DNA of 64,000 nt from Amphiscolops sp. MND2022 (Eukaryota): positions 50,532,001 through 50,596,000 of the forward strand of contig OZ076409.1 in assembly GCA_964187785.1 (NCBI GenBank), read 5' to 3'. Of this stretch, positions 10,687 to 64,000 are shown piece after piece; positions within the stretch are counted from its first letter, which is position 1, and the number at the start of each line of letters is the position of its first letter. The position numbers and the translations under genes were made by a program. The notes below the pieces were generated by a model, which saw nothing but the letters and a program-made list of their open reading frames with translations, was not told the DNA's origin and searched no databases.

Positions 10687-10699
10687 TCACTCCCCGGGC
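10687..10699 (-). promoter_or_regulatory. Polypurine tract of element A
   Basis: GCCCGGGGAGTGA on minus, directly before the LTR start TGTAAC. Confidence 0.75.
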
Positions 10700-15960: not shown

Positions 15961-17674
15961 GTCGAATTGAAGCGCGAGCGCTTATTTGAGGTTTCGACCT
16001 ACTATGTACGTTGTACACGAAAAAACACTGTTTTGACGACTTTTTTCACAAATTGACCAAGAGGATCACCTCAGAAAGTGATACGGCGGGCAAAATGGGA
16101 CCAACGTGTTGCCTCACTATCCGTAGCACTGGGATAAACCCTCAATTGGTGGTGCCCACTAGGTGTAAGGCACTGACAGTACTGCAGTTTTGGATTTTTT
16201 CGGTCCTTTCACGCTTCTCTGAAGTCGAAACGTCACAGAGCTTTTCTCGACTTTGGTGAGCGATACGCCCACCAAATTTTCGGCACTAACGTTAATTTTT
16301 GTGCTGGTTACGAAAATGCAACCACTTTTTGGCTAGGGTTCAAGAATCGATGACCCGACCTTAGCTCAGAGACAGTCCGGTTTTGTGGAAAATTGATCAA
16401 ATCCAGTGCGTTTTTCCACTTTTCTCAGCACTGAAAAGGAATTTTTGCACGCGGTTTTCACCACAATGCGTTATTTTTACTATAAAAACAGAAAATGAGA
16501 GCGCGCGGGCTCCCAGGTCTCGAAAACACTGAGTGCCCCAGAGGTTTTAATGATGCACTCTGGCACTTCTGAAAGTGGCCAAAAATCAAGGTTTTTCGAC
16601 CTGTTCTCACCAAGAAAACGTTACAAACTCTCTTAAATCCTATTTTCGGTACCGTGGAGTGTGCCCCAAACTAATAGCAGCACGGAAGAGGCAATTACAT
16701 CACAATCCAGCACTCTCCCAGTGGCATTTCATAGTGGTCTTTGCCACTTTCGCCAAAAACCGGGTTTTTTCATGCAAAATGTGTTCCAAAAAGGACTCCA
16801 ACGGCCTTTCTGGTTGTCGTTACAATATGTAGCATAACCCTCAAGGTCTTGGGCTGCTTTCTATTTTTTTTGCAACTGCTGTGGCTAATACTTCGAGCGC
16901 TCGCGCTCGTACCAAGAAAAGTACTCAAAAATGCCAAAAATCACGTTTTTGCGACTTTTGCACTAAAAGTCGCACTTTTTTCACTGAAAACAGGTGCAAA
17001 AGCACACACTCAGTTGCAACAGGGTAAAACTAGCATGCACAATGGATTCCCCGTCAAAAAAAACACAATCTAAAATTTTTTTCATACCATACTCCAAAAA
17101 ACCGATTCTTGCGGAATGAGGGGTGGTACCTTCGCCGTCTTTTTTCTCAACAACCAGACCAGCCAGAGAGAAACGGTTTGGACCGTCGGCAACGTCAGTG
17201 TTTGTTCTAGCTTTCCATCAAAAACAATGCTTCTAGCACGTCTCCACGTGAAATGGGAAAGGAGAGTCGGGAACACTCGTTTCAGCTCATCTATCGGTCA
17301 GATGGAACATGGCGCATCCATCAACTGAATACCTCGTACATAGCCAAAAACGCTGAAATGAGCTGTAAAACATCTGTTACCACATGCGTAACGGCTTTCT
17401 AGCGGTTCGCTAAGCCATTACAAAGGTACCCGCTGATGGGAACGTGCAATTTTAGACGATACCTGTCAACGATACCTGTTATCAAAACATACCATAGGTA
17501 TTCGGAAAAATCCCCCGAAAGACTGGAAAAATACCAAAATATAACGTCATAACATCTAAAAAATTTGGAAAAACTCTGGGTAAACGTCTCCTTCCAGAGT
17601 CCAATCGTTCTTGGCGTCCAATACCAGGGGGTCGGAAATTTCAAAACCATATAATAGGGCAGTAATCGGAAGCG

Positions 17675-17692
17675 ATCCCTCTGTGGTCGCCA
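17675..17692 (-). promoter_or_regulatory. Primer binding site, tRNA-Arg(TCG)-like
   Basis: TGGCGACCACAGAGGGAT on minus is near-complementary to the 3' end ...UCCCUUCGUGGUCGCCA of metazoan tRNA-Arg(UCG) as I recall it. It lies 15 nt from the LTR end. Confidence 0.7.
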
Positions 17693-17707
17693 AAAAATGA
17701 GGTCTCA

Positions 17708-18480
17708 TGTAACGGCAAGCTGTTATCGGTCGCTTAACGCGTTAACAGAGGTGGAGGAACCTGCAGAAATGGGTGAATCGCTCGGGACAGGCGCCCATCG
17801 CCACAGATCCATTTTGCCTCCAGGGGTGAAATACGTCCCGGGGCCGCGGGTGCTTCGACGAATACTGTCCAACCGGTCCCAGTCTTTAATTGCTAATAGT
17901 AATGGGCATCTTTCTGACTCTCTAAAGACCACCGCTTAACTAGCATATAAAAACAATGCCAAGAATAAGGTAAATTTCCAGTTTCAGGGTGACATGTGAA
18001 TAAGATCTAAAATTGGGGAATAAGATCTAAATTAGCGCTAGCGCTACTGAATACAGCCAAAATCACTGAAAATACATGAAAACAGGCACGAATATGGCAA
18101 ACCACACAGCTAAAAAGCTGGGGCGCAGGGACTCCAAGCACCAAACAAGGATCTTTAGGCGAAAATACTCATTTTTACGGTTTCCGCTACATAGGGTAGC
18201 ATAATGCCGAAAATCGATAAAACCGGTGTTAGCACCTCAAAAAGAGTCTATTTTCAGTCGTTCTTGCCGTCTCTGGCTTCTGTCATGGCGGCGCGCCCGT
18301 ATTTTTGCTCGTTCTTGCTCTTTGTTGTCGAAGTACCTGCCAATTTCGTGGAAACAGCGAAAAGAGCAATCATATGCTCAGTGCCACGTCACACATCGGA
18401 TTAGAATTTTTGACAAAATTTCTGAACATGTCAAAGTTGCAAAATTGGTTGATATTGCTGTACCAGAGCTTGCCGTTACA
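17708..18480 (-). repeat. 5' LTR of element A
   Basis: Direct repeat of 9914-10686, with the PBS following on minus. Confidence 0.93.
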
Positions 18481-19876
18481 GTTCAACTCAATTTTATTGC
18501 GATTAAATATTCATCAAGCCTGCCACCGAGGACGTTTTTAAAAATTGAAAACTCTTCCAAAAAATTCTCACAGGATCAAATAACTAAAAATGACCCCCAC
18601 ATTTTAAAATCTAATTAGTTTTGTCAAAACACCACGAACATTTTGCTCTTTTTAAAGATGTTCGTAAGCGTTTCACATTCGGTATGAAATGGTCACTTCG
18701 ACCGGATGGAAAAAAAACACGACAAAAGGTCACTATAATAGCCACGATTTGTTTCATAAAGCGCCAACTAAAAAAGTAATGATCGATTCGAAAATTGTTA
18801 AACCTGATTTGTTCTACTCCAACTTGAACCCTTTGATGAACCAGCCAAAATGCAACAATGTTTGAGCCGGTTATTGTTTCTTGGGCTTTTTTTAAAAAAA
18901 TGAACAATTACTGTTTCGCTTGCTACGCACGTACATCTTAATGCTTACACATGTATGGTGTTGCCTGTACAACGCAACTCGGTATTAGAGACCAATCCTT
19001 ATTTCATTATGGATCCTTAAAAATGCATCCTCATTTCTCAACATGTACAGCTTCATGAATGATTATCCATAATTGAGAATGAAATCGAATTACCCATGAA
19101 GTCGAATATGAGGACATGAAAAAGTTGAGATAATGGATGGAATGACAAAAATGAGCTTTGATGATCAGGCTTGAAGGGGTTATGTTGGGAAATTGGGTTC
19201 TTGCTACTCAGAGATGATCACTATAATGGATCTATTTAATGTCTATTATGACGCTCTGTTGAGTTTTCCATCAATCGAAGTATTGAAACCCATCTGCGAA
19301 TAAAATGTCTCTAAGAAAGAGAATATTGCGGCTAATAGTACAAAACGTTGTGTTCTAATAAAATTTGGATACTACAGTACAGTACTTGGATCTAATAATT
19401 TCTTGCTCTCGATTCGTAGTTCAATCTAAGTTTTTCTAAAATATAATAATGTAACAAAGTAGCATCGACATTATGCAGGTACTCGAAAGAGAATAACTAA
19501 TTGAAGTAATTTCATTCAGGTTAATTGACAGGTGGTCAAAGATTCTTCCCGAAGCCCCCTTGGATCTTTTCTGATAATTCCCACCCTCCTTTGACCACCA
19601 ATTTAATTCTCCCAGTTAAGCAGTCAAGTGAAATTATCATTGAATTAATAGTAACAACCAATCAAATTGAAGTATTTTGTAACTCTAGCTGCAACTGAAA
19701 CTCATCGCTGATAGTGGTGGGGAATTAAAATAAATCAACAGAAAAGATCCGCCCTTTTAGTCTATTTGTGAGCACAGAAAGAGCTTTAAATGTAGCGAGA
19801 ACGACCTTTCACGTTTGTGATGACTTGGTGTCGGTTTTGAAAACGAATAGGTTTTAAACATCTTCAATTTAAGGTA

Positions 19877-20064
19877 CCCGGGTCAACCCTTTTACTAGCA
19901 TCTTGGCTGTCTTGGCAAGATCTTACCAACTTCTTACAACATCTTGGCGACCATCGAACCCGTGGCAAGATTCCTAATAAGATCTTACTAAGATTATACA
20001 TTATTTCAAGATCGTATCTGATTACGATGGACAAAATTCTAAGATTATAGAAAACACCATACCT
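19877..20064. mobile_element. Truncated left end of the same MITE, cut by the duplication breakpoint
   Basis: Identical to 23766-23953 and ends at the junction. Confidence 0.8.
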
Positions 20065-21596
20065 ACAGTCCTGCAGTTTTGGATTTTTTCGGTCCTTTCA
20101 CGCTTCTCTGAAGTCGAAACGTCACAGAGCTTTTCTCGACTTTGGTGAGCGATACGCCCACCAAATTTTCGGCACTAACGTTAATTTTTGTGCTGGTTAC
20201 GAAAATGCAACCACTTTTTGGCTAGGGTTCAAGAATCGATGACCCGACCTTAGCTCAGAGACAGTCCGGTTTTGTGGAAAATTGATCAAATCCAGTGCGT
20301 TTTTCCACTTTTCTCAGCACTGAAAAGGAATTTTTGCACGCGGTTTTCACCACAATGCGTTATTTTTACTATAAAAACAGAAAATGAGAGCGCGCGGGCT
20401 CCCAGGTCTCGAAAACACTGAGTGCCCCAGAGGTTTTAATGATGCACTCTGGCACTTCTGAAACTGGCCAAAAATCAAGGTTTTTCGACCTGTTCTCACC
20501 AAGAAAACGTTACAAACTCTCTTAAATCCTATTTTCGGTACCGTGGAGTGTGCCCCAAACTAATAGCAGCACGGAAGAGGCAATTACATCACAATCCAGC
20601 ACTCTCCCAGTGGCATTTCATAGTGGTCTTTGCCACTTTCGCCAAAAACCGGGTTTTTTCATGCAAAATGTGTTCCAAAAAGGACTCCAACGGCCTTTCT
20701 GGTTGTCGTTACAATATGTAGCATAACCCTCAAGGTCTTGGGCTGCTTTCTATTTTTTTTTGCAACTGCTGTGGCTAATACTTCGAGCGCTCGCGCTCGT
20801 ACCAAGAAAAGTACTCAAAATGCCAAAAATCACGTTTTTGCGACTTTTGCACTAAAAATCGCACTTTTTTCACTGAAAACAGGTGCAAAAGCACACACTC
20901 AGTTGCAACAGGGTAAAACTAGCATGCACAATGGATTCCCCGTCAAAAAAAACACAATCTAAAATTTTTTTCATACCATACTCCAAAAAACCGATTCTTG
21001 CGGAATGAGGGGTGGTACCTTCGCCGTCTTTTTTCTCAACAACCAGACCAGCCAGAGAGAAACGGTTTGGACCGTCGGCAACGTCAGTGTTTGTTCTAGC
21101 TTTCCATCAAAAACAATGCTTCTAGCACGTCTCCACGTGAAATGGGAAAGGAGAGTCGGGAACACTCGTTTCAGCTCATCTATCGGTCAGATGGAACATG
21201 GCGCATCCATCAACTGAATACCTCGTACATAGCCAAAAACGCTGAAATGAGCTGTAAAACATCTGTTACCACATGCGTAACGGCTTTCTAGCGGTTCGCT
21301 AAGCCATTACAAAGGTACCCGCTGATGGGAACGTGCAATTTTAGACGATACCTGTCAACGATACCTGTTATCAAAACATACCATAGGTATTCGGAAAAAT
21401 CCCCCGAAAGACTGGAAAAATACCAAAATATAACGTCATAACATCTAAAAAATTTGGAAAAACTCTGGGTAAACGTCTCCTTCCAGAGTCCAATCGTTCT
21501 TGGCGTCCAATACCAGGGGGTCGGAAATTTCAAAACCATATAATAGGGCAGTAATCGGAAGCGATCCCTCTGTGGTCGCCAAAAAATGAGGTCTCA

Positions 21597-22369
21597 TGTA
21601 ACGGCAAGCTGTTATCGGTCGCTTAACGCGTTAACAGAGGTGGAGGAACCTGCAGAAATGGGTGAATCGCTCGGGACAGGCGCCCATCGCCACAGATCCA
21701 TTTTGCCTCCAGGGGTGAAATACGTCCCGGGGCCGCGGGTGCTTCGACGAATACTGTCCAACCGGTCCCAGTCTTTAATTGCTAATAGTAATGGGCATCT
21801 TTCTGACTCTCTAAAGACCACCGCTTAACTAGCATATAAAAACAATGCCAAGAATAAGGTAAATTTCCAGTTTCAGGGTGACATGTGAATAAGATCTAAA
21901 ATTGGGGAATAAGATCTAAATTAGCGCTAGCGCTACTGAATACAGCCAAAATCACTGAAAATACATGAAAACAGGCACGAATATGGCAAACCACACAGCT
22001 AAAAAGCTGGGGCGCAGGGACTCCAAGCACCAAACAAGGATCTTTAGGCGAAAATACTCATTTTTACGGTTTCCGCTACATAGGGTAGCATAAAGCCGAA
22101 AATCGATAAAACCGGTGTTAGCACCTCAAAAAGAGTCTATTTTCAGTCGTTCTTGCCGTCTCTGGCTTCTGTCATGGCGGCGCGCCCGTATTTTTGCTCG
22201 TTCTTGCTCTTTGTTGTCGAAGTACCTGCCAATTTCGTGGAAACAGCGAAAAGAGCAATCACATGCTCAGTGCCACGTCACACATCGGATTAGAATTTTT
22301 GACAAAATTTCTGAACATGTCAAAGTTGCAAAATTGGTTGATATTGCTGTACCAGAGCTTGCCGTTACA
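21597..22369 (-). repeat. Third family-A LTR copy, created by the tandem duplication
   Basis: Same LTR, PBS and right flank (GTTCAACTC...) as 17708-18480, offset by 3889 bp. Confidence 0.92.
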
Positions 22370-23765
22370 GTTCAACTCAATTTTATTGCGATTAAATATT
22401 CATCAAGCCTGCCACCGAGGACGTTTTTAAAAATTGAAAACTCTTCCAAAAAATTCTCACAGGATCAAATAACTAAAAATGACCCCCACATTTTAAAATC
22501 TAATTAGTTTTGTCAAAACACCACGAACATTTTGCTCTTTTTAAAGATGTTCGTAAGCGTTTCACATTCGGTATGAAATGGTCACTTCGACCGGATGGAA
22601 AAAAAACACGACAAAAGGTCACTATAATAGCCACGATTTGTTTCATAAAGCGCCAACTAAAAAAGTAATGATCGATTCGAAAATTGTTAAACCTGATTTG
22701 TTCTACTCCAACTTGAACCCTTTGATGAACCAGCCAAAATGCAACAATGTTTGAGCCGGTTATTGTTTCTTGGGCTTTTTTTAAAAAAATGAACAATTAC
22801 TGTTTCGCTTGCTACGCACGTACATCTTAATGCTTACACATGTATGGTGTTGCCTGTACAACGCAACTCGGTATTAGAGACCAATCCTTATTTCATTATG
22901 GATCCTTAAAAATGCATCCTCATTTCTCAACATGTACAGCTTCATGAATGATTATCCATAATTGAGAATGAAATCGAATTACCCATGAAGTCGAATATGA
23001 GGACATGAAAAAGTTGAGATAATGGATGGAATGACAAAAATGAGCTTTGATGATCAGGCTTGAAGGGGTTATGTTGGGAAATTGGGTTCTTGCTACTCAG
23101 AGATGATCACTATAATGGATCTATTTAATGTCTATTATGACGCTCTGTTGAGTTTTCCATCAATCGAAGTATTGAAACCCATCTGCGAATAAAATGTCTC
23201 TAAGAAAGAGAATATTGCGGCTAATAGTACAAAACGTTGTGTTCTAATAAAATTTGGATACTACAGTACAGTACTTGGATCTAATAATTTCTTGCTCTCG
23301 ATTCGTAGTTCAATCTAAGTTTTTCTAAAATATAATAATGTAACAAAGTAGCATCGACATTATGCAGGTACTCGAAAGAGAATAACTAATTGAAGTAATT
23401 TCATTCAGGTTAATTGACAGGTGGTCAAAGATTCTTCCCGAAGCCCCCTTGGATCTTTTCTGATAATTCCCACCCTCCTTTGACCACCAATTTAATTCTC
23501 CCAGTTAAGCAGTCAAGTGAAATTATCATTGAATTAATAGTAACAACCAATCAAATTGAAGTATTTTGTAACTCTAGCTGCAACTGAAACTCATCGCTGA
23601 TAGTGGTGGGGAATTAAAATAAATCAACAGAAAAGATCCGCCCTTTTAGTCTATTTGTGAGCACAGAAAGAGCTTTAAATGTAGCGAGAACGACCTTTCA
23701 CGTTTGTGATGACTTGGTGTCGGTTTTGAAAACGAATAGGTTTTAAACATCTTCAATTTAAGGTA

Positions 23766-24750
23766 CCCGGGTCAACCCTTTTACTAGCATCTTGGCTGTC
23801 TTGGCAAGATCTTACCAACTTCTTACAACATCTTGGCGACCATCGAACCCGTGGCAAGATTCCTAATAAGATCTTACTAAGATTATACATTATTTCAAGA
23901 TCGTATCTGATTACGATGGACAAAATTCTAAGATTATAGAAAACACCATACCTTCGGTACGAACAACCGAGACTCAATCTAAAAGCTCAATTCACCCCAT
24001 ATTGACTGTTTATACTCGTTTTCATAATCAAAATGCTTAAACCTGCTGAAATAAATTTGCATGCAAAACTGTGCGAAAAATTACGATAACGCACTCATCT
24101 ATTCGTGCTATATCTATAACGTGCTATTCTGGCTTCCGAAACTCTGACGAGAATTCGAATAACTCCTCACCTGTTTAGGACAGAGAAATACAAATATACC
24201 AAATGAACGCTCATATCAAGGACTTTTGAAAACTTGTAACTTATCACTCCTGTCGATTCCAGAGACGGAGAAAAATGATCTCAAACGTCCAAAGCCACTA
24301 TCGGAAAGTAACACAGGGAACACTAAGAAATCCGGTAATTTTTTGTAAATTCATATCTGTTTTTCTTTGAGCCTGTTTCAGCAGCCGTATTACGTCCCGT
24401 TTTGGGAAATGATTCAGCTCGAGGCTTTTCTGACGCCGTTCTTGGCGGCAGTTTTGCAATTGAGAGAACAATTTAATCAGTGCATCCCTAAATGAACAAC
24501 ATAAGGACTCTTCAATCAAATTTTATATCTTGCAATTTTAATGTCTAACAATATAAATCTGCAAAAATTTTGATTTTTGTTGACTTCCTTTCAGATTTTT
24601 TTCTTGCCAAATAGGATTTTACAATAAAATTATTCTGGGAAACATGGCTCTTTTGATAAGATCTTACCATGACATCTTGCAATTCTTGGCAATATCTTGG
24701 CAAGATGTTGCCAAGATCTTACTAAGATTTCCATGGTGGGTCAACCCGGG
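23766..24750. mobile_element. MITE, same family as 5337-6351
   Basis: TIR CCCGGGTCAACCC / GGGTCAACCCGGG, TA TSD, collinear with 5337-6351. Confidence 0.82.
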
Positions 24751-49800: not shown

Positions 49801-50864
49801 TAAAAAGATCAACGGAAATCAGAATTTTTGAAAGTCAAACTTCTGAAATACCAAAACCCAGCTAAATCAAACATTGGGTTATTGAATATATGCGTCGCCA
49901 CGTCTAATAAATATATAGCTAACTTTATGCATACGTTCTTATGGACAGGTGCATGTTTATGATTTTGGTAACTTTTCTTCAAAATAAAGGAATTAATTTT
50001 ACAGCTGAATAAGAATTCAGTTTATAACCATTATTCGAACACGATAAGAACCAGAGATTGTTATCGCATTCTGATTTGAACAGATTTTATCACACTATAG
50101 AGAGCTAGTTTTTAGTCGGCGCTTTTAGTTCAGATTAAAATCGCCCGACTATTACAGTTACAAATAAAGCAGTCGATAAGATGTTTTTCCAATTTTTTTG
50201 AGCCAACTTTAAACTGTTCTCCGCTTGTTTATACCTCCAGTTTCTTTTACAAGTCTTAAACTTTTGTCGATGTTGATACCTCGTACTGAAGTTCCCCCTC
50301 ACAGCGTGTTGAGACACGTGACTTGTTTTTTTTGACATGACACAATTATTTCGAGTTTAAGATTTGAAGCTATCAAATGAACAATTAGATTCGAAGGAAA
50401 CGGCCTTGTCAAAGTAGTAACACAAATATATGCCTTTGTTCAACTGAAAAGGAGGTTCAAGTAACTTTCCATATCAAAATTTCCTATTCTTACAAATTCC
50501 CAGAAGCCCTAGAAACAATCTTATAAAAAATTGCAAAAGCACAAAAAAGCAAAATGAAAGAAAAACGAATAATTTTGTGGCATCATGAATGTAACTTTTC
50601 GTCAAACAAAATAAATTCCGAGAAACTAAATTTTTGAAAGAATCGGGTGTTTGTTTTAATTTGTGGCCAGTGGAATTTGAATGTAACGTGGGCGAGCTGG
50701 CCGCTTCATAACATCATTTCTTCTATTGGGGCTATCGATTCTTCCAAAACGAGTTGATAGATAAAACGTTAGGTGGTAAAAGTCTTTGGACCAAAAATGG
50801 GAATTTATCAATGGCTATCCAGTGTGAAATTTCTTAAAACCTTTGACAAGAATCTTGCATATTA

Positions 50865-51060
50865 ATATTTTTCCTGGATGGTTTTGGTCTTTAAAAAGTC
50901 TTGCCCAGATTCATTTATAGGTTTCCAAGGTTTCTGAGCATTTTATATCTACAGTTTCAAAATTTTGAAACTGTAGATATAAAATGCTCAGAAACCTTGG
51001 AAACCTATAAATGAATCTGGGCAAGACTTTTTAAAGACCAAAACCATCCAGGAAAAATAT
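50865..51060. repeat. Perfect 196-bp palindrome with no spacer
   Basis: 98-bp arms, centre TTTCAAAA|TTTTGAAA at 50962/50963. Confidence 0.95.
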
Positions 51061-51190
51061 GATCTTGCAAGAGTTTGCCGAGAGCTTCAAAAGGAAAACC
51101 AGCGAAAAATAACGAAAAGAGCCAAAATCAGTTGCGAACAGCCGCTTGGTTAGTGTACTTATTATAGATATTATACAGCAGTGGGAGAAA

Positions 51191-51926
51191 TGTAACGACA
51201 AGCTCTCACCATTGTCGCCGTAACCATAAGAGTTAGAGGAACACATGATATGGGTATTTGCCCGGGACAGGCGCCCATGACCATGAGCTCATTTTGCCTC
51301 TTTCGGGTAAAAACTGTCCCGTCAGAGGAGGATTCCGCTTCTTGTGAAGTGCTCGCCGGCCTGATCCAGTCTGTAATTGCTATCAGTAGTGCGCATTACG
51401 CTTTTTCTTCGAAATCAACACTTAGATAGCCTTTAAAAAAATGCAAGTGGTGGAAAGGGAAAAATCAAGTTCCTTCGAAGTTACACAGGAGATTGAAATA
51501 AGTAGCTCACGAGCTGTTACAACAAGAAAATACGAAAATTACTACATAATTAGCACTTTTGAGGCAGCAATTAGCCGGGGACACAAGCACGGATGCTTGG
51601 TCAAGCTAATTGACTCATTTTTGGTAATCACAGCGTCTTGTAACGCTTCGCTGAAGAAAGCACTGGTTAGAACAAAGTTCAGTCCGTTTTGGCAGAAATT
51701 TGAGTCTTTTTCTGACAGTGGCCGTGTTTTTCTGCAATCTTCTCGTTCGGTTGGGGTCTCTCTCGAGTCTCTTGCTCAAATCCTCTTCAATTCCGTGGAC
51801 AGGTACTTGAATAAAGACACGCTACCGTCTGGCGGAATATGACTCTTTAGTAGAGGAGATATAGTCCCTTGAACGAAATTTTCATCGAAATTTTCGAAAT
51901 CGTACACTCGATAGGTAATCGCTACA
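51191..51926 (-). repeat. 3' LTR of the Gypsy element (family B, 736 bp)
   Basis: On + it starts TGTAAC and ends GCTACA, followed by TACACTCCCCGGGG (PPT complement). It shares the blocks CGGGACAGGCGCCCAT and CATTTTGCCTC with the other LTRs in the window. Confidence 0.85.
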
Positions 51927-51940
51927 TACACTCCCCGGGG
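51927..51940 (-). promoter_or_regulatory. Polypurine tract of Gypsy element B
   Basis: CCCCGGGGAGTGTA on minus, immediately 5' of the LTR start TGTAGC. Nearly identical to the PPT of element A. Confidence 0.75.
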
Positions 51941-52942: not shown

Positions 52943-55534
52943 TTACTGGGTGGCGGAGGAGTGACGCGCTCTGGGGGAAACGTCTGCCTTTGGTTGCAGT
53001 TCGGACAGAGATCCTCTTCGCGTATTTCCTCCTCGCAGGACTGGCTTTGGTTCGGCGCTGGCAGTTTCATGGGTCCTAGGAGCCGTGTTTGAGCCACCAG
53101 GGCCATTTTCTGCGGCTACCGGAGTTGATGCTTCTGGCGAATGTTCTTGCGCTGCATTGGCTGAGCCGCTAACATTGGCAGAACTTGTGGTTGACGTGGA
53201 GATTGGGATCTGTACATCCAGTCTACTAGCATTAAACAAGTGCGGTAGATCCAGCGGTCTATTGCGGGTGGCAATGGGTCGTTTCTGTTTCGCACTGAGT
53301 TTCGGGCGTAGATCAGGTCGGCCCCAGAGCCCGCAGGCTCTGGACCAGTTGTCCCTATTCGCATGTTCTATGATTTGCCTAGAGGCTTCCCATTCGGGTC
53401 CGAGGGGATCACTTAGCAATTCCATGACGTGGTAGCAAGTCTCCGCTGGCATGTCGCTTCCCATAGTAACCCTCGCCTCTGGATTCCAAACAGGCATTGT
53501 CAGTGGGGGGATGATCAAACCTTTTAGGAGTCCTTGGCGCTCCTCCAGGGTCCTTGACATCCACACGCCAAGTTTGTAGTGGTCGCGATAGGAATACTGC
53601 TCATCAAAGCCCTTCTCGACCATACTGATTGGCTTGGCCCGGATATAACCGATGGGTCCTCGCCAGTACCTGGCTGGAAGCTTAATCATTTGGAAATTGT
53701 ACTCCTGATTCATGTGACCGCCCATGGTTTGCACACATTCGGTCACGTACTTCCTGAGGTGTGCGAAACTCCAATTGAATCGCTGTGGGATTCCGAGGTG
53801 GTCTAGGGGAGAATTATACCAATTCACCGGGCCGTATTCGCGAGGTAAAGGGCACGCCTTCTTTGTTCGGGCTTTGAGAATACCGGCCAGGTTTTCGTCT
53901 TGCTGCGTCTCATTCTTTATTGTGGTATACATGCGTGGTACTAGCAGAAACAGCCCACGTTCAAGCATCTGTTGATAGTTGTGTGGTTTCACGTTCTTCA
54001 GATAAGTTAGGATGGATACCGTTAACGTCTCCGAGGCCAGTCTCAGAGGCTTGGTGGGATATCGGAGTATCCCGGTTGGGCCAAATATCGGAGTTAGCAC
54101 GGGTGCTAACACCGGTATAAGATCTTCGACTTCAGCCAAAGTGAAATCTGCCAGCTGGTTGGGTGTCAAAAATCCAGCTACCTCGGTCACTAGCTGACGT
54201 CCATCATATAATGGTTGGTGCTTATCCACCCCCACAAAAAGTCCCGAGGCAAAGACCAGACTGCAATATATCCAGTGATATAATGAAGTTGTCATACGCT
54301 CCAGGTGAGCGGGATAATCCTGAGCGTCTTTCCGTTGCAACAGCTTGGCTAGGGCGGTGAGGCCTGAGATATTCCCTCGTGCAATCACTAAGTATGAAAA
54401 TAGCCATTCCAGATTACACTCGGTAACCAGGTCGGTCAATATCATCATTGGGCCAGCTACAAAGCGTTTCTGCCCGAAAGTGAGCATCAGTGCAAAGAGT
54501 TCGTTCACCTGCACGGTACCGATAATCTCGCTGATTTCGATCAACCAACTCTCCTCTAAATCGAACTCGACTCGAATAACATCGGGACTCCAACCCAATC
54601 CTAAACAGATGGCAAACTGGTCGGTTGACATCCCAAGCTCTTTTGCAATGTCTGCTACGGTGGTAGTTTGTAGCCGCTGGTACCAAGCGTCGTAGGTGCT
54701 GCTGAAGGCTTGGATTTCAGCCTGAGTTTCGCTCGTCAGTTTTGCAGCAATGTACTTCATTCCCACTGATAATTGATCGATTGTGAGGTCTTTGGCAAAT
54801 TGAACTCGCGGGATCGCTCGTTCTACTTCTCGGTCGCTGGGGACTTTGCTCATTGTGGCAGTGACTTCTGCTAGATCGGTTTTGATACAAGTCTTTCCAC
54901 CGGAGGAGCGCGCGCGCTCTATCCAGTTATTCAGGCGGATTGCCTCGCATTCAGCCGTACTGGGCTCTGGGACTCGCCTTTCTCCGTCCTTGTTGAATAC
55001 CAACAAGCCCATGCGAGTGCCGTGATCAAAGTAGATGGCATCGTCGATTGTCAGCTGCGCGTTCCCTGTCTTTTCCACTGACTGTAGCACTTTAGACACT
55101 GAGGCAATATACCCCATGTAGGACAGCCAGGAGGGACGAAAGTCATTGGAGCTAATCCGCATATTGGGCGCGCAGATCGCAAAGTCTATTTCTCTACACT
55201 TGCAAACTTCTGTCACCATGTATACAAATCTCTGCAAGGCGAAGGGCCATTGGCAAAAACCTGGGGGTGTCACGAACAGGGCTGGCACCTTGAGTTTGTC
55301 CTTCAAGATGTTTTGGGCTTTCTCCATGGCTCGGGCCATGTTCAATGCTGCATTGCGTACCGTTGTTCGCTGAGCCGGACTTGGATTCATAATCTCAACG
55401 TTCGCGATCTGGGCCATTAGTCCTTCACAGGCCATGTGATCGAAAACGTTGCTGATGATCACTCTACGTGGAGGTGGCTCTTTGAAGGTTCCTGTCATCT
55501 CAGGGTCAAACATGGTGACCAACACTTCGGCCAT
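52943..55534 (-). CDS. Retrotransposon extra ORF, part b: remainder of the SGNH-like domain plus a large uncharacterised region
   Basis: 863-aa ORF with GC content like pol, between part a and the 3' UTR. No obvious env hallmarks. Probably the continuation of 55495-57561 across a -1 frame break. Confidence 0.85.
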   Translation of the reverse strand: MAEVLVTMFDPEMTGTFKEPPPRRVIISNVFDHMACEGLMAQIANVEIMNPSPAQRTTVRNAALNMARAMEKAQNILKDKLKVPALFVTPPGFCQWPFALQRFVYMVTEVCKCREIDFAICAPNMRISSNDFRPSWLSYMGYIASVSKVLQSVEKTGNAQLTIDDAIYFDHGTRMGLLVFNKDGERRVPEPSTAECEAIRLNNWIERARSSGGKTCIKTDLAEVTATMSKVPSDREVERAIPRVQFAKDLTIDQLSVGMKYIAAKLTSETQAEIQAFSSTYDAWYQRLQTTTVADIAKELGMSTDQFAICLGLGWSPDVIRVEFDLEESWLIEISEIIGTVQVNELFALMLTFGQKRFVAGPMMILTDLVTECNLEWLFSYLVIARGNISGLTALAKLLQRKDAQDYPAHLERMTTSLYHWIYCSLVFASGLFVGVDKHQPLYDGRQLVTEVAGFLTPNQLADFTLAEVEDLIPVLAPVLTPIFGPTGILRYPTKPLRLASETLTVSILTYLKNVKPHNYQQMLERGLFLLVPRMYTTIKNETQQDENLAGILKARTKKACPLPREYGPVNWYNSPLDHLGIPQRFNWSFAHLRKYVTECVQTMGGHMNQEYNFQMIKLPARYWRGPIGYIRAKPISMVEKGFDEQYSYRDHYKLGVWMSRTLEERQGLLKGLIIPPLTMPVWNPEARVTMGSDMPAETCYHVMELLSDPLGPEWEASRQIIEHANRDNWSRACGLWGRPDLRPKLSAKQKRPIATRNRPLDLPHLFNASRLDVQIPISTSTTSSANVSGSANAAQEHSPEASTPVAAENGPGGSNTAPRTHETASAEPKPVLRGGNTRRGSLSELQPKADVSPRARHSSATQ

Positions 55535-57561
55535 ATGGGAATACGTGACAGCGGTAGAGTAAAAACCATCACGTCTGACAACACGTTGTCAATGGGGACA
55601 TTCTTGAGGAATGTTGAGTCAATAAGTAAGGCGAAGCGCGCACGCTGCAACCTTTCTTTTGGCATTGGTAGCTGGGCTTCGAGATCACGGGCGTACCGTG
55701 GGTTGATCTCAAAGGTCTCTCCAGCGTTGAGGAAATATCGATCGGCGAATTGCCCACGAAGGTCAACGTTGAGGGCATCTAGGTAATTGTCATCCACGTT
55801 TGGCAGCATATTCATTGCCTTCCCTAGCCATGGCGGCTCATTGGTAGGAGTGTGGTCTGGGCGGATTGGACGATTCATGAATACGGGTACATTCGCCTTC
55901 TTCAGTTTCGCATGCTCTTCGTCATTTGGAGGACACATGTTTTTCTCAAATAGCCATTCGGGCGATACTATAACTGCCGATTCCCAGATACGTCGGGAGT
56001 CCTTGGTGACCAATGTGCCCTTTGTGTTCTGCATGGGACTCAGGTACGTCGGCTGTTTCGTAAAGGTCCTCTTAGTTGGGTGTTGAATCGCCTGTTTCCG
56101 GAGCGGGGTTCCAGTTGGACCACTGTTGGTCACTTTCAACCCTGGGTAATCACCCATTATGTCCTTGACAGTTCGCTGGGATACAGGGGTGCCTTGATAA
56201 CCCACAGTTTGCTCCGATTGTGGCTGTCCTGATGTGGAGGGCTTAGGAGTCGCTCGTTGAGCCAGCGACTCGCGTGTTGTAGACTGCGTGGATGGTGGTT
56301 GCGGCAGTCCTTGTTGTTCGCCTGTTACGTCCGGTTGTGATTGGGGTGAGGGAAGCACGCATGCTTCCGACACTTTTGACTTCGTTTGGTCTGGCGCTTT
56401 GGAGGTTGTGGCCTTCTCGTTGGAAATCTTTTTGTCGGGTGGTGGCTTGCTCGAGGGGCTGTCACGGGCAGTCAATGGTTGTTGAGTCTTTTTTGTTGGA
56501 GAAGGGTCGTTGCGCTTTCTGGAGGCAGGGCGGCTCTCTCCTCCCCCCTTTTGAGAAGAGCGGGAAGGCGAACGACTGCGTTCCACAGTCACGGTGCGAG
56601 AGTGTCCTGGCTGTTCAGACTGAGGATTGATGTGGGGAATAGTGATGACACCTTGACGTGTTTCAGTTGAAGTCGCATTGTCGTTGCGAATAGTGACAGT
56701 GGGCAGAGCAATTCGACGTAGTTCTGGCCAACACTGCTCCATGGATCGCATGAAATCATCGTAATTGGGATTGGCAGCCACTGCTTGCAGCGCTGAGATG
56801 ACTGCTTGCTCCGCCATAGATTGATTGGGCAAGCCAGGCACTATAGGAGCAGGAGTGCGCGCACGCACTACTGCTTGTGGTGTTGGTGCAGGAGGTGGCG
56901 GTGGAGGTGGAGGCGGGCAAGAAGGGATCTGTAAAGGTCTAGTCTGGTGGACTCCGCCATTCGCAGGACTATACGAGATCGCCGCACGATCATCTGTGAA
57001 GTGATGCGTGAGATCATGGCCGTGCCACACTCCATCTTGGTACGTCATGGATCGTTGGAATCCAGGAAACCCTGAAGTAATTGATATCGTCAGCATTGGG
57101 GCTTGCAATTGTGATTCCATTTGGGCAATGATTGCTGCTACCCCGGCAACTGCAGCTGGCGACAGACCTTGGTCGAGTCTGTCTCGAATAAAGGCAATTT
57201 GTGGGGTGCGTTGGACACGCGCAGTGTCGTAGACGCGTTGCCCCAAGGCAGGAGAGTTATCTGTAGACCTTGGCGGGACGTTGTTGCTTCTATCATTATC
57301 TTGGTTCATGACGACAATTCTGAAAGAGCGTAGGTCGATTGTAGCACACTTGATAGTAGGGCAACACCATAGGTCATTTAAGGGTAATACCAGGGAAAGT
57401 AATAGAATGTCACACATTAACATTAAAGAAAAAGATAACGTAACAGTCTCAAATAATCTTCGTGTCGATTCACTAAACTCAATCGAGCGGACAAAAAAAA
57501 ACGAAAAACAAAAAAAAAGCGGACAAACGAAAGCTTTACGGAAAGCTAGCGACGCTTGCAA
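55495..57561 (-). CDS. Retrotransposon extra ORF, part a: proline-rich/disordered protein ending in the start of an SGNH-like domain
   Basis: 688-codon ORF directly after the pol stop. The track start is TTG; in-frame ATGs lie at 57423 and 57309 (MNQD..., favoured). It has a poly-Pro tract and a Ser/Thr/Pro/Gln-rich middle, ends ...RFALLIDS...FTLPLSRIP and overlaps the next ORF in the -1 frame. Confidence 0.8.
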   Translation of the reverse strand: MQASLAFRKAFVCPLFFCFSFFFVRSIEFSESTRRLFETVTLSFSLMLMCDILLLSLVLPLNDLWCCPTIKCATIDLRSFRIVVMNQDNDRSNNVPPRSTDNSPALGQRVYDTARVQRTPQIAFIRDRLDQGLSPAAVAGVAAIIAQMESQLQAPMLTISITSGFPGFQRSMTYQDGVWHGHDLTHHFTDDRAAISYSPANGGVHQTRPLQIPSCPPPPPPPPPAPTPQAVVRARTPAPIVPGLPNQSMAEQAVISALQAVAANPNYDDFMRSMEQCWPELRRIALPTVTIRNDNATSTETRQGVITIPHINPQSEQPGHSRTVTVERSRSPSRSSQKGGGESRPASRKRNDPSPTKKTQQPLTARDSPSSKPPPDKKISNEKATTSKAPDQTKSKVSEACVLPSPQSQPDVTGEQQGLPQPPSTQSTTRESLAQRATPKPSTSGQPQSEQTVGYQGTPVSQRTVKDIMGDYPGLKVTNSGPTGTPLRKQAIQHPTKRTFTKQPTYLSPMQNTKGTLVTKDSRRIWESAVIVSPEWLFEKNMCPPNDEEHAKLKKANVPVFMNRPIRPDHTPTNEPPWLGKAMNMLPNVDDNYLDALNVDLRGQFADRYFLNAGETFEINPRYARDLEAQLPMPKERLQRARFALLIDSTFLKNVPIDNVLSDVMVFTLPLSRIPIWPKCWSPCLTLR

Positions 57562-60500
57562 TAGATACGTAAACGCGATCGTGAAGAACGACGGTCAGGG
57601 GGGTGTCGGCGAATACGTCCATCAAACAGGCATAAAAATCAAAAAGATTACGTATTGGGCGTTCAGGATCAACGATGGTAAAGTGTACTTCTATCGCCTC
57701 CAAGCGCTCGAGTAACGTTTTCAAATGATCAAGACATCCAAAGAGAATATCAGCGAGCATAGGGCAGCGAGGTGTAGCTCGTGTGATTAAAAGGTGGATA
57801 GTCTGAGGATGGCCGTCTATCAGAGATGTGGGTAGCGTTACAATATTGCCAACCTCCGGTCGAAGTTGAAAGATTGCATCTGCACCATGCTCACGAATGA
57901 CGTAACGAAGAGCGGCAGAACTAGTTTCCAGATTTGCGGGACAACATAAAACGATATGATGGGGAGTCTGCAGGAAATCCGTATTGGCATACTGCACATA
58001 GTCAACCAATTGAGGTCTCGCGGCTCCATGGTACACTAACTCTCGTCCGGGGTCCTTGAAGAGAGCATCGTCACATGCATTCGGGAGGAGGCCCTTGATT
58101 GCGCCCAAATCTTGCCATACAGATCGCGGCAATGATTGATTATCAATATTAGCCCTGGACCATGTATCCAGTGCGTGCAGGGCCGATTGGAGGGATACAG
58201 GACTAGGAAATGAGTGTGTCCATTCGTCCAGGAATCTGATTCGTGAAAAATTTGATAAAACTGCTATAATAAGTTCCAGCCACCATTCAAACTTAATTTT
58301 ACCACGATATAGGTCTATCGTGTGGAAACAAGTGATTTTATCAGGAGAGGCCATCGTCCGCAAACTCTCCAGACAGGTGTTCAAGTTAGTGGGATGAACC
58401 AAGTCGGATGCTTGTTTGGCCGTAACTAGTAGCCACCAGTTGCTTGTAGGCTGATAAACGTCTCCTGGTTTAGCTGTGACGTTGTATTTGTCGTACAAGA
58501 GGTCAGCAGGAATACAGCGTATCATTTGGATAGGCTCTCGCTCATAGTTGAAAGGACCAAAAACAATATTAGTAGGCAAAGGGGGAACAGTGATGGGTAA
58601 AGTGAACTCCAAACCAACAAGATCATAGGTCCACTCCTTGAACCTTGGGCACGGGGCCTTTGCTATCGTAGAATCGTTCATTTTGGATAGGATATAGTCC
58701 ACGGGATATGGAGTGTCACTGCGTTGTAGCCCAGTGTAGGTTTTCTCGGCTCGAATAACCAAACGGTCAACCATTCCGCTCGGAAGTGATTTCTCCTGTT
58801 CAAGTGCTAATAGGACTCCCTGGGATTTGATTGGGAAGCCCGCGTGGATCATGTAGTTACATTCGCAGTTTCTCAGGCCACATGTTCCGCAACGATATCT
58901 GGGAATGCGATTGCGTCGCAGTCCATAACGAGCGTTGGTCGATTCTGGCGGTGCTGCCTGATCTGAGGTAACCGCCGCGCTAGGGGCAGAAGAGTCAGTG
59001 TCCATTGATGGAGTGTTACGAACATGGGTAGGAGTGTTAGGTCTGGCGTGCGTTGTACGAGGAGGTCTACCTCTGGGACGGCCTCTTTTGCGAGCGCCTC
59101 TAATAGCACCTCTCCGTTGGTGACCACGTGGCAGCGAGGCTCGCGGCCTTGCTCTGCCTGGCGGACGTCCCCGGGGTCCACGCCCTCTAGGAGCATTGGG
59201 GAGTTTCGTGGTAGTAGCTGCATCATTGTTGATGGGATTTGTTGCAGGGGGAATTGATCCCTTTTCGTTATTGGTCGTTGGTGTGTCAGCACCGTCGTCG
59301 TCCAGGGTTGGGTTGAGGTCATTGTCATCGATTAGGGGCCAAATGGGAAAGTTACTCAACATATCCGTAAGAGATGGATTTGTCAATAATGGGGCGGATG
59401 TACCGGTCAAAGAAGTGGCGGCACTTTCGGTGGGTACGTGGATATCAGGATTCGGGGCGACATCTAATGCGTCTGGTACTGCTTCATTCTCTGAAAATAG
59501 AGCCTCCATAGCAGGTAGTGGTGATATTGGCATTTCGGGAATAGGCGCAGGCTCGTCTACTTGTGATGACAAGATAACACTTTCGTCAGGATTTGCCTGA
59601 GCACTCGATAGGAGTACATCAGAACGTTCATCGTCAGACTCAGTCGAAGAGTAGCCAAATTGTTGATAATACAGGCGGCTGCCACCTGCGCGCATGTGTG
59701 TGCGTAACCGTGTGTCCATCCAATGTCTTTGTCGAGAAGGCAAAGAGGCATTGCTGGCTTCTGAAATTGGTTCCTCTGCACGGTAAGAAGGTTGCGAAGC
59801 GTCGTCTCTCACCTCCTCATGGGATTGTTCTGGATCAGGGTCCATGATGATAGCAACCTCACCGTTATGCGCAGGAACAGCTGCCCATTCTGTTGGACCA
59901 CCATGATGCGGTTTCAATCGTTCAAAATGCACTTTCTGACCAGTGTCAAGTATGTAGACGCGTCCCTCTTGTAGCACTCGTGCTACCTTGTGAGGACCAC
60001 GCCACGCTCTCATCAATTTAGGGGATCCCTTTTGAGGAATGTATCGGCAGAATACCCAAACAGGTTCGCCCACTTCGTAGGCCTTAGCACGAATTGCTCT
60101 GTCGTACTTCAATTTTTGTCGTTGCTGGGCTTGATGCGTGTTGCGACGGACTAAGTCATGAATCTCTTGTTGTCGAGCCAGCACATGTTCCACATAGGCT
60201 TCGTGTGATTCGAATGACTGAGTTGCAAATTCCGGATACAAAAAAGTCAGGGGTATAGCTTTTTCCATGCCTCTGGTTAGCATATACGGGGAGAATCCAG
60301 TAGTGGCATGACGTGTGGAGTTGTATGCACCCATAACTTCATCTAGGTACTGATCCCAGTCACGCATTCGTCTAGAGCAGAATACACGCAGTAGGGTGAG
60401 TAGCGTTCGGTTTTGTCGCTCTACCAACCCTTGAGTCCTGGGGTGGCCAGCAGTTGAGGTTACTTTGGTCACTTGGGCTGCTTTCATAAACTCAGCAGAT

Positions 60501-63500
60501 ATTGCCGCGGTGAAATTGGGAGCATTGTCTGACTGCATCCTCGTTGGCGTTCCATGGCGGGCAAACCACTTCTGCAACAACAACTTTGAAGTGGTCGCTG
60601 CATCATACTCATCGTGGTTACACGGCACAGCTTCTGCGAGCTTAGAGAAATGATCGATAATAACCAATATCCCTGTGTTACCATCATCAGAGGGACAAAT
60701 TTTCATGTGGTCATATTGGACTAGCTCGTTGAAATAACCGCTTTGGATATTCTTCAAGTGAAAGCGTACATCACCAGGCTTGTCGCGTACTTGTTGACAA
60801 GTGATACATTGGCTGACGTATTGTCCAATGGTGCGGCGGATGCCTGGCCAAGTGTGGCGCTCTTGAATTCTGGCCAAGACTTTCGCGATGCCCTGATGTC
60901 CCATCGCGTCGTGGGCCTTGAATAGTATCTCATGCTGATACAATTGTGGCATCACTATCATGCAGGGGCGTTCATGCAGAGCTCTTTGAGTTTTGGAGTA
61001 TTTTACACACAAAATCCCGTTGGCGTTTATCAGTAGAAGGTTCTTCTTCTGTTTGTGGTAGTTTTTGGCAAAGGCACGTACATTTTCCGGAAAGACGTCA
61101 TTATCTATTGATTCTTGCGTTACCAATTTCTTGATAGCCAATATATGGACGTCACGGTTTTGTGCTAGTAGTAGATCCTTCAACCCATGGACTGTGTTAG
61201 CATGTTCATGCAGTTCCATTGATATGCTGTTTACCACAAACGCGGCTTGTTTTACGTGCTCTGGTGCAGTGCTAGTTGCTTGCTTTTCCGTCAGTGGGTA
61301 AGTGGTTCTCGATGGTACGTTAGCAGCATGCGTGGGGAGTAGATAGTCTCGTTGATATTCCTCGGTCAGTTCTAACCAATCCTCAGGATATTCTGGATAA
61401 AGTTCGACAGGCAGTGTCAATTCTGGTTTTGGCAACGTAGGTAGAGGCGCTCTCATGGCTTCCTCGCGTATGGTTGCATTTCGTTTGCTTCCTCCGCTCT
61501 TTCGCGTGGGAGCGGCAACTGTGGTCTCGGGTGAACTTTGGCTACCCAACCTCTGCAAGTGTGCAGGCAATTCTGGGTGATTTGGTATCACACGTCCGTG
61601 GACATCGAACCATGGGGCGAGCGGGAGTTTGTTATATTCCTCCTGTGATAGGAAATCCCATTTGTCTGCAATTGTGGGTAAACCCTTTAGTTGCTTTTCG
61701 TGTTTTTTGTAATCATTTGTTCGTTTGCTAAGACCGTCAGCATTTCGATGTTGCGTTCTGGGTCGATGCTCAATGCTGAAGTGATATTTTTCAAGAGCCA
61801 TAATCCATCGACCGATAATTGCCTGATCCATCGAATATGTTTTTAGCCAGGATAGAGCCTGATTATCTACTCTCAATGTGAACTTTCGTGGACAGAGATA
61901 ACTGTGGTTTTTCAAGATGAAATAGTATGCAGCATACATTTCCAATTTTGGGGCTCCATACTTTGCTTGCGTAGCAGTTAATTTTTTGCTTCCGAATACA
62001 ATCGGTCGCAGTTTGCGACTCTCAGGTGGTCCTTGCCATTGGTGCAGAATACCCGATATAGCTACACCACTAGCATCTGTGTCGAGAACAAATTCGCCTT
62101 CAGTGTCAGGTTGCGCCAGAGCAGTGGCTTCCATTAGTGCCACTTTGATGCTGTTGAAGGCTCGCTGCTGCTCCTCCCCCCATAAAAATGAAGAGGCTCC
62201 TCCCGTTATCGCGTGTAAAGGAGCAACTAGTTTTGCATGCCACGGGATAAAATCTCGATAGTAGTTGGCAAAACCCAAGAAACTTTGCAATTCAGTCTTG
62301 GTTCGCGGGATATCCCATTCTTTCAGCTTGATGACAGCTTTTGGATCTGGCTTGATACCATCTGCAGATACTACCCGGCCCAAATATTTGATCTCCGATT
62401 TCATGAAGTCACACTTGGAGACTCTCATTTTGAACCCGGCCTCACGCAGGCATTGGAATACTTCGCGTAGTCTGTCCATGTGATCCTCGATGGTCTCGGT
62501 AGCAATCACAATGTCATCGATGTAGGCCATAACCATACTTCCTTCACGGTTCACTATTCTTTGTAGCGCTCGCGCTATTGCCCGTTGAAATGTTGCTGAT
62601 GCGTTACACATACCAAAAGGCATACGCCGCCACTCAAATAACCCAAGTTCACAAGCGAAGGCAGTCTTTTGACGATCGGCTTTTCGGACAGGAATTTGCC
62701 AGAATGCCCACGCCAAGTCAATACTAGTATAGATTTTGGCTTTGCCCAATCTGGATAGACTTTCATCGATACGTGGCAAGGGATAAGCGTCTTTGATGGT
62801 CACTTCATTAAGTGGTCGAAAGTCACAACAGAATCGCAACTCACCACTCTTCTTTTTGACCATGACAATTCCACTCGCCCAAGGGGATAGGGAAGGTTGT
62901 ATCATTCCCAAAGCTAGCAGGTCACGGACTTCTTGGTTAGCACGTTCTGCCTTGTCAGGCGACATTCGTCTTGCACCTTCGCGGTGAGGTACAGCCCCTG
63001 GCTCTACTTCCACCGGGTGCTTAGCGATTTTACACTTGCCAATATCGGCTTTGAATTTCATAAACAAATCATCAAATTCATTCAAAAGTTTACTAAGCGT
63101 GTCGCTGGCGGTCGATCCCCACAAACCGCGCACTTCGTCGAGTTGTGCTTCCGGGCCCGGTATCGGAGCCATTAACGCCGGATCGGTTCGTTTTTTTACT
63201 TCGCGCTCGGACAAGCCTAGTTCTGACGGTTCGGTAGAGGACAAAAACTCAAATTCAGATGAAGAACTATATTCAGAAGAAGAATCAAGGTTCATCTGTT
63301 CGTAAACTTTACAAACATAATTTGCATTTGACTGCTGAGTTTCACTTGATTGTCCGGGGACAATCTGGGGGATGGCTTTATGAACCATTGTTACGGGTAC
63401 CGCGGTTCCTAAAAGGGTGCCCTTTTTAATCCGCTGCACGTTGCTGGTAAGATTTCCTAAACTGACGTAAAGGAAGCCAGTCTCCCCCACGGTCGCCACG

Positions 63501-64000
63501 GTGTCCTCTAAAAAGATGGCGTTTTTTAACATTCGGTTAGATGTTTGGAAATTGATTAGCACGGTTCGAAATATGAAAGGTTCTAAGTTGTCTACAAGCA
63601 ATTTAGCGCGTAGTATTGCGCGTTCAAAAGGTTGCAACACTACGTCCTGTGCAATCGCCACCGATGAATTGAGTGATTCGTTACTTACTTGTGTGTGGGC
63701 ATGGTACCACACTGGTTCAGACGGAGCTCGGACAATGACCTTCATCGCGGTTAAATCCACCAAGACTTGATAAGCTCTTAGGAAGTTTCTGCCCAGGAGG
63801 AAGTCTTCCACTCCCATGGCGTCATCGACTACCACGAAGTTAGTTTCCAGTTCGTAGCCTCCCAATTGGAACTTGACTTTCTCCGCTAGACCAAAAGTTT
63901 TGATCGTTTTCCCATTCGCGGCATACAAGTCAATACCATAAGGTCGTAGGAGTGTCCCAGTGCGCACAGCGACTCGATTGTAGGCTGAGAAGGTGAGGAT
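57536..64000 (-). CDS. pol: Gypsy Pol polyprotein: C-terminal protease half, dUTPase-like spacer, reverse transcriptase, RNase H, integrase and a long C-terminal extension
   Basis: ORF of >=2143 aa, open to the window edge (ILTFSAY...). Protease tail FLLGRNFL. RT motifs SPWASGIVMVKKK, CDFRPLN, YPLPRID, MPFG, YIDD (~62515). RNase H DTDAS (~62075) and RVDNQAL. Integrase HDAMGH...CITC (~60790-60915), D-D-E (QYDH, QSDN, VERQNR) and GPY/F-like WRGPHKV. TAA at 57536. Confidence 0.97.
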   Translation of the reverse strand: MLTFSAYNRVAVRTGTLLRPYGIDLYAANGKTIKTFGLAEKVKFQLGGYELETNFVVVDDAMGVEDFLLGRNFLRAYQVLVDLTAMKVIVRAPSEPVWYHAHTQVSNESLNSSVAIAQDVVLQPFERAILRAKLLVDNLEPFIFRTVLINFQTSNRMLKNAIFLEDTVATVGETGFLYVSLGNLTSNVQRIKKGTLLGTAVPVTMVHKAIPQIVPGQSSETQQSNANYVCKVYEQMNLDSSSEYSSSSEFEFLSSTEPSELGLSEREVKKRTDPALMAPIPGPEAQLDEVRGLWGSTASDTLSKLLNEFDDLFMKFKADIGKCKIAKHPVEVEPGAVPHREGARRMSPDKAERANQEVRDLLALGMIQPSLSPWASGIVMVKKKSGELRFCCDFRPLNEVTIKDAYPLPRIDESLSRLGKAKIYTSIDLAWAFWQIPVRKADRQKTAFACELGLFEWRRMPFGMCNASATFQRAIARALQRIVNREGSMVMAYIDDIVIATETIEDHMDRLREVFQCLREAGFKMRVSKCDFMKSEIKYLGRVVSADGIKPDPKAVIKLKEWDIPRTKTELQSFLGFANYYRDFIPWHAKLVAPLHAITGGASSFLWGEEQQRAFNSIKVALMEATALAQPDTEGEFVLDTDASGVAISGILHQWQGPPESRKLRPIVFGSKKLTATQAKYGAPKLEMYAAYYFILKNHSYLCPRKFTLRVDNQALSWLKTYSMDQAIIGRWIMALEKYHFSIEHRPRTQHRNADGLSKRTNDYKKHEKQLKGLPTIADKWDFLSQEEYNKLPLAPWFDVHGRVIPNHPELPAHLQRLGSQSSPETTVAAPTRKSGGSKRNATIREEAMRAPLPTLPKPELTLPVELYPEYPEDWLELTEEYQRDYLLPTHAANVPSRTTYPLTEKQATSTAPEHVKQAAFVVNSISMELHEHANTVHGLKDLLLAQNRDVHILAIKKLVTQESIDNDVFPENVRAFAKNYHKQKKNLLLINANGILCVKYSKTQRALHERPCMIVMPQLYQHEILFKAHDAMGHQGIAKVLARIQERHTWPGIRRTIGQYVSQCITCQQVRDKPGDVRFHLKNIQSGYFNELVQYDHMKICPSDDGNTGILVIIDHFSKLAEAVPCNHDEYDAATTSKLLLQKWFARHGTPTRMQSDNAPNFTAAISAEFMKAAQVTKVTSTAGHPRTQGLVERQNRTLLTLLRVFCSRRMRDWDQYLDEVMGAYNSTRHATTGFSPYMLTRGMEKAIPLTFLYPEFATQSFESHEAYVEHVLARQQEIHDLVRRNTHQAQQRQKLKYDRAIRAKAYEVGEPVWVFCRYIPQKGSPKLMRAWRGPHKVARVLQEGRVYILDTGQKVHFERLKPHHGGPTEWAAVPAHNGEVAIIMDPDPEQSHEEVRDDASQPSYRAEEPISEASNASLPSRQRHWMDTRLRTHMRAGGSRLYYQQFGYSSTESDDERSDVLLSSAQANPDESVILSSQVDEPAPIPEMPISPLPAMEALFSENEAVPDALDVAPNPDIHVPTESAATSLTGTSAPLLTNPSLTDMLSNFPIWPLIDDNDLNPTLDDDGADTPTTNNEKGSIPPATNPINNDAATTTKLPNAPRGRGPRGRPPGRARPRASLPRGHQRRGAIRGARKRGRPRGRPPRTTHARPNTPTHVRNTPSMDTDSSAPSAAVTSDQAAPPESTNARYGLRRNRIPRYRCGTCGLRNCECNYMIHAGFPIKSQGVLLALEQEKSLPSGMVDRLVIRAEKTYTGLQRSDTPYPVDYILSKMNDSTIAKAPCPRFKEWTYDLVGLEFTLPITVPPLPTNIVFGPFNYEREPIQMIRCIPADLLYDKYNVTAKPGDVYQPTSNWWLLVTAKQASDLVHPTNLNTCLESLRTMASPDKITCFHTIDLYRGKIKFEWWLELIIAVLSNFSRIRFLDEWTHSFPSPVSLQSALHALDTWSRANIDNQSLPRSVWQDLGAIKGLLPNACDDALFKDPGRELVYHGAARPQLVDYVQYANTDFLQTPHHIVLCCPANLETSSAALRYVIREHGADAIFQLRPEVGNIVTLPTSLIDGHPQTIHLLITRATPRCPMLADILFGCLDHLKTLLERLEAIEVHFTIVDPERPIRNLFDFYACLMDVFADTPLTVVLHDRVYVSIASVASFP

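Follow-up and report, generated by a model that had tools for sequence, protein, structure and literature searches.

Our analysis of a 64,000-nucleotide stretch of the Amphiscolops sp. MND2022 genome (hereafter the window) identifies the coding sequence that follows pol in a 19,237-bp LTR retrotransposon as a single real gene, ORF3 (52943-57309, minus strand), which is under strong purifying selection, shows no env signature, and has a core predicted to adopt the SGNH-hydrolase fold. The reading that we favour, with a probability of roughly 40%, is that ORF3 acts as an intracellular, non-catalytic adaptor, the pocket of which would accommodate a ligand bearing phosphate (a membrane phospholipid being the likeliest) and would thereby dock RNA-protein particles (RNPs) on membranes.

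A selected third gene in a Ty3/Gypsy element

The host element is a Ty3/Gypsy LTR retrotransposon. Its 736-bp 3' LTR, with TG...CA ends, lies at 51191-51926 (minus strand), while the 5' LTR lies 6 kb beyond the window (G000:C1:50601692-50602427) and is 99.86% identical to it; the polypurine tract ends 4 nt before the 3' LTR (51931-51936, minus strand). A single gag-pol frame, the 3' part of which occupies 57536-64000 on the same strand, encodes a Gag with a CCHC knuckle and then, in this order by Pfam, protease, RT, RNase H, then integrase, followed by a long conserved tail. The closest solved RT is that of Ty3 (E 6.5e-63; next 6.3e-41), ahead of retroviral and caulimoviral RTs; our own RT tree comprises 36 RTs, all of them unnamed rows, without named Gypsy reference elements. 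Pol extends beyond the integrase core by about 900 residues, through an acidic/Pro-rich arm, an RGRP-rich stretch which we take to be AT-hook-like, a CxxCxxxxCxC cluster and two conserved domains, and this tail (57539-58920) shows dN/dS of 0.05-0.17. The two domains, the macrodomains of the annotation, presumably resemble TARG1-type motifs, a macrodomain likeness seen by eye only, with no family or structure-sequence match.

In the window, ORF3 appears as two overlapping minus-strand frames (57594-55495, with the ATG at 57309, and 55588-52943) between the pol stop at 57536 and the 3' UTR. The initial annotation had joined them into one protein of about 1,455 residues, and a natural unbroken copy does encode 1,455 aa from the same ATG; the 4.6 kb of coding sequence it gave was an overestimate, the measured length being 4.37 kb. 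The split is due to a one-base frameshift near 55,540, which was absent from 29/29 other copies examined: the anchors flanking it are separated by 70 in the window, but by 71 in every one of these copies. Of the 29, 23 have a single frame that stays open for 1,426 codons or more, and the remaining six have stops or frameshifts of their own at other places. The family A copies were obtained from a DNA search of the 1.07-Gb assembly that gave 628 first-look candidates, of which 40 were scored and 30 fetched; the further copies that the annotation had proposed to look for are thus present, with hundreds of candidates, and most of those fetched are open. Because the split is private to the window copy and most copies are open, ORF3 is one gene without a programmed frameshift. 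The window element also has an in-frame gag stop (L031 3249-3251, outside the window) that is missing in three other copies, and with the gag stop and the ORF3 frameshift it is doubly broken despite its near-identical LTRs.

Selection on this gene was estimated by pairwise Nei-Gojobori comparison over the whole frame, with dN/dS of 0.060, 0.060, 0.069 and 0.134 within family A and 0.074 and 0.082 within family B, six pairs that share ancestry and are thus not independent of each other. All six values amount to the purifying selection that the annotation had proposed to look for across copies. By part, dN/dS was 0.04-0.09 for the SGNH domain, 0.06-0.22 for the linker and 0-0.34 for every ORF3 segment, next to 0.01-0.03 for RT-RH; against an 84%-identical subfamily, ORF3 gave a dN of 0.13 with dS saturated. 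That ORF3 might be no gene at all (frames open by chance, sequence inserted as a passenger, or an artefact of assembly) has next to no probability: it would fit the break in the window copy and the lack of any Pfam, NCBIfam, PHROG or Atlas match of the protein, but the frame is open in most copies and in four families, dN/dS is far below 1, and there are 452 relatives at E<=0.001 and a coherent fold. Open copies, dN/dS and fold searches together refute this reading.

The genome holds four such families, A to D, with a common layout, lengths of 18.9-19.3 kb and LTR pairs that are 98.9-100% identical. Relative to family A, ORF3 is 36-41% identical in B and C and 27-28% in D, and RT-RH is 87-89% identical in B and C and 74% in D. 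A distinct lineage, as the annotation had suspected, is thereby supported, and it comprises several families. The 452 relatives in the sequence collection are mostly fragments; one comes from an 816-bp contig of a bacterial MAG, where it is labelled a hypothetical protein, and is likely a contamination. Since at least one relative, P0093, has no match in this genome at E<=1e-40, the family probably extends to other organisms.

The insertion footprint of the lineage is short. A 3-bp target site duplication at 51188-51190 is repeated in the 3 bases that precede the 5' LTR, and such a duplication was found in 13 of the 15 family A elements (from 20 tried) for which both ends could be placed, and in 9/12 further elements from families A-D, where the misses include two elements with altered 3' LTR ends and one that shows a 3-bp match in a separate comparison. 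Overall, duplications were of 3 bp in 22/27 elements, of 4 bp in one and of 5-6 bp in none. In all twelve elements (12/12, including L031 7660-7692, L116, L117, L118, L173, L176 and L179), 15-16 nt separate the 5' LTR from the start of the primer site. In families A-C this site comprises 18 nt with complementarity to tRNA-Arg(TCG) of this genome plus CCA; it differs in sequence in family D. The tRNA-Arg(TCG) genes themselves form a tandem array from G000:C9:57537789 onward (L165-L167), with a period of about 174 bp and 255 pattern matches genome-wide.

About 120 bp from the insertion site, the window also contains a long near-perfect palindrome without spacer (50853-51072; 110-nt arms, 96%). 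Another lies at 7511-8088 (248-nt arms, 100%). A tandem duplication of 3,889 bp, recent in origin, spans about 16176-24060 within the region 9914-24700, which also carries a repeat in three near-identical copies (at 9914, 17708 and 21597); a 476-codon stop-to-stop frame (11760-13190, minus strand) falls within a stretch of 44% GC.

A predicted SGNH-fold domain with a changed active site

The SGNH-fold domain, likely a pseudo-enzyme, was delimited at 55060-55630 (minus strand) from a structure model, fold searches and column counts. The modelled core has the alpha/beta/alpha flavodoxin-like topology of SGNH proteins in the fold searches, an outcome that agrees with the fold expected from the initial annotation, and two of the motifs it had named, RFALLIDS (55638-55615) and NDFRPS (about 55147-55130), lie where it had placed them. 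Catalytic blocks were assigned by eye from the block table in PMC10792757, using a 41-row alignment that includes many decayed fragments and a cleaner set of 14 sequences that reaches down to 25% identity. Block I (D-S at 55620-55615) has Asp in 35/37 rows and then Ser in 29/37. Block II has Leu instead of Gly in 35/40 rows, at a position judged equivalent by eye, and is without a conserved Gly; in block III, with the register likewise set by eye, a hydrophobic residue precedes the conserved Asp, an invariant Asn stands three residues earlier and a conserved His follows.

At block V, which reads R-P (55138-55133) where enzymes read H-P, the catalytic His position is occupied by Arg in 14/14 sequences of the cleaner set and in 34/41 rows of the larger alignment, His being found in two of the 41, both decayed fragments. 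The missing block V His of the annotation is indeed absent, but a conserved Arg stands in its place, so this is not a simple loss. Because it is conserved, this Arg is a selected substitution rather than decay, and it would suit anion binding. Judged from these columns the catalytic triad is not intact and normal esterase catalysis has presumably been lost; with the Gly and His positions both changed, the domain thus looks catalytically impaired, as had been proposed. Given Arg for the catalytic His, ORF3 would likely bind membranes or RNA rather than cut. A fold kept under selection with Arg fixed in place of the catalytic His, over a divergence exceeding 70%, provides a natural test of whether selection maintains binding and not hydrolysis.

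We also considered a rearranged active enzyme, a deacylase or acyltransferase in which the kept Ser might work with the conserved His after the block III Asp, or in which Arg might stabilise the intermediate. The conservation of potential active-site residues (S 29/37, N 38/41, D 37/40, H 37/40 and C 35/41, with N and D invariant in 14/14) speaks for such an enzyme, but we find it rather improbable, as the post-Asp His is Tyr in P0167 and Asp in P0343, the oxyanion Gly and Asn positions are altered, and a His-to-Ser change abolishes the esterase activity of ZfL2-1 (PMC3905857).

Expression, flanking domains and possible function

The SGNH core is embedded in further conserved sequence. A domain of about 100 aa at the N-terminus (about residues 30-137; 56899-57222, minus strand), defined by alignment and bearing a W-x-G-x-D-L-T-H motif, is 33-43% identical across families A-D (9 copies aligned) and has no Pfam or PDB-sequence match, LOTUS included. 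The Pro-rich arm that the annotation had placed ahead of the SGNH blocks is present, but this conserved domain in front of it had been missed. The arm corresponds to a Pro/Ser/Thr-rich, basic low-complexity linker (55990-56898, minus strand; 15% Pro, 22% Ser+Thr, K+R 40 vs D+E 23), poorly alignable between families and presumably disordered. On the other side of the core, and on the same strand, follow an all-helical domain (54248-54817, modelled at pLDDT 75-98), a further conserved, mostly helical region of low to middling model confidence for which no match was found (53290-54247), and a low-complexity C-terminal tail (52943-53289). Searches of viral and PDB libraries gave no structural match for the C-terminal half, half of the model of which is below pLDDT 70. 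Both the N-terminal and the helical domain, being without a match, may be new folds.

As the annotation had remarked, a clear env signature is lacking: simple hydropathy and motif scans from the conserved ATG found no signal peptide, internal furin site or C-terminal anchor, and an in-frame ATG upstream of the start is closed off by stops in sister subfamilies. The best hydropathy window (1.74 in A, 2.1-2.3 in B) falls on a proline-containing stretch. Translation may proceed from a spliced subgenomic RNA by way of an acceptor-like signal, a pyrimidine tract plus CAG (57320-57335, minus strand) that ends 10 nt before the ATG; a pyrimidine tract with YAG lies 6-12 nt before the ORF3 ATG in 7/9 copies (A, B and C) and is absent in D, compared with 14/257 control ATGs, and CTAAY branch-like motifs occur nearby in B and C. 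Family B has a two-codon mini-ORF between this signal and the ATG, the stop of which overlaps the start (L091 590-607; L093 650-667). The position after pol and the acceptor-like signal match env expression, and together with one moderately hydrophobic conserved stretch they are what could be said for an unrecognised envelope or fusogen for cell-to-cell spread. This is nevertheless very improbable given the three absent features, the SGNH core and a C-terminal half without any viral structure match at E<=0.001.

In the adaptor model that we prefer, a spliced subgenomic RNA would yield a product residing in the cytosol; its SGNH pocket, with Arg for His, would bind this phosphate-bearing ligand, in the likeliest case a membrane phospholipid, while either the N-terminal or the helical domain, or else the basic linker, would contact Gag or RNA, so that the element's RNA-protein particles could be docked on membranes. 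The model draws on an analogy: the ZfL2-1 esterase still binds to liposomes when its active site is mutated (PMC3905857). The ORF3 SGNH domain is not net basic, which counts against it. An RNA-binding role like that of the dead SGNH domain of Oskar fits as well as lipid binding does, and ORF3 could then be an RNP scaffold that, with its N-terminal domain and disordered linker, gathers element RNA into germ-line or other granules. We regard this as a possible but unlikely alternative, as the N-terminal domain has no LOTUS or other match, ORF3 keeps the Ser that is Asp in Oskar, and the retroelement esterase tested in PMC3905857 showed no oligo(A) RNA binding. Taken jointly, the two non-catalytic binding readings, lipid adaptor and RNA scaffold, are probable.

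Countering host defence is a frequent role of large accessory ORFs in retroelements. ORF3 would fit this general pattern if it blocked host silencing (piRNA or chromatin) with the SGNH fold serving only as a protein-interaction scaffold, and the lineage is very successful, judging by its many first-look candidates and young LTR pairs. Even and strong purifying selection across all segments, where an arms race should bring fast evolution, and the lack of any known suppressor domain make counter-defence decidedly improbable.

Comparison with known systems

In the literature searched, a scope without Repbase Reports and subscription journals, we found no account of this combination of features. 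ORF3 itself is less novel, since SGNH/GDSL third ORFs have already been reported in LTR retrotransposons of bdelloid rotifers, and catalytically dead GDSL derivatives are known in Athena-L (Penelope-like) elements (both in PMC5408684). SGNH domains have been captured repeatedly by retroelements of three classes, for reasons still to be explained (PMC5408684, PMC3905857). What raises the novelty is the 3-bp target duplication together with the displaced primer site: a curation guide gives 4-6 bp for LTR elements (PMC8969392), and another source gives 4 or 5 bp, with a primer site immediately downstream of the LTR (PMC10886601). This combination points to unusual end processing and suggests that a large active clade may be under-annotated. 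We tentatively raise, as an unlikely whole, an old, undescribed Ty3/Gypsy clade in which env would have been replaced by an Oskar-like pseudo-esterase with one or two new folds, steering particles to membranes or germ-line granules, and in which integrase geometry would differ (a stagger of 3 bp, 15-16 nt past the U5 CA); standard LTR finders demanding 4-6-bp duplications would then miss it.

The TG...CA LTRs, tRNA primer site, polypurine tract, CCHC Gag, PR-RT-RH-IN order and Ty3-closest RT are those of Ty3/Gypsy (Metaviridae-type) elements, from which the lineage differs by its target duplication and primer-site spacing. The giant Burro and Ogre elements also owe their large size to extra coding sequence, though their extra ORF is of a different type (PMC6431247). 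The ORF1p esterase ZfL2-1 of L2/CR1/RTEX LINEs likewise places a retroelement SGNH domain behind a small N-terminal domain and binds membranes independently of catalysis, but it belongs to a non-LTR element, in the ORF1 position, with an intact triad and measured activity (PMC3905857); its structure 4C1B was not among the best 50 matches listed in either fold search. Oskar's OSK domain (PDB 5a4a) is a triad-less SGNH fold behind a small domain and linker (PMC10792757, PMC7250577), yet it is part of a host germ-plasm gene with Asp for Ser, whereas ORF3 keeps Ser, is 8% identical and has no LOTUS match. According to PMC5408684, the bdelloid element Vesta1 is also of Gypsy type and carries a separate, non-env SGNH third ORF after pol, which, like ORF3, is without coiled-coil or TM env features. 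In Vesta the ORF3 amplicons measure about 1.3 kb, with S, G, N and H all retained, in contrast to the 4.4 kb, the His-to-Arg change and the about 1,250 further residues seen here; Vesta has a dUTPase in pol and a low copy number, whereas our lineage combines a long Pol tail and a 19-kb length with hundreds of candidates.
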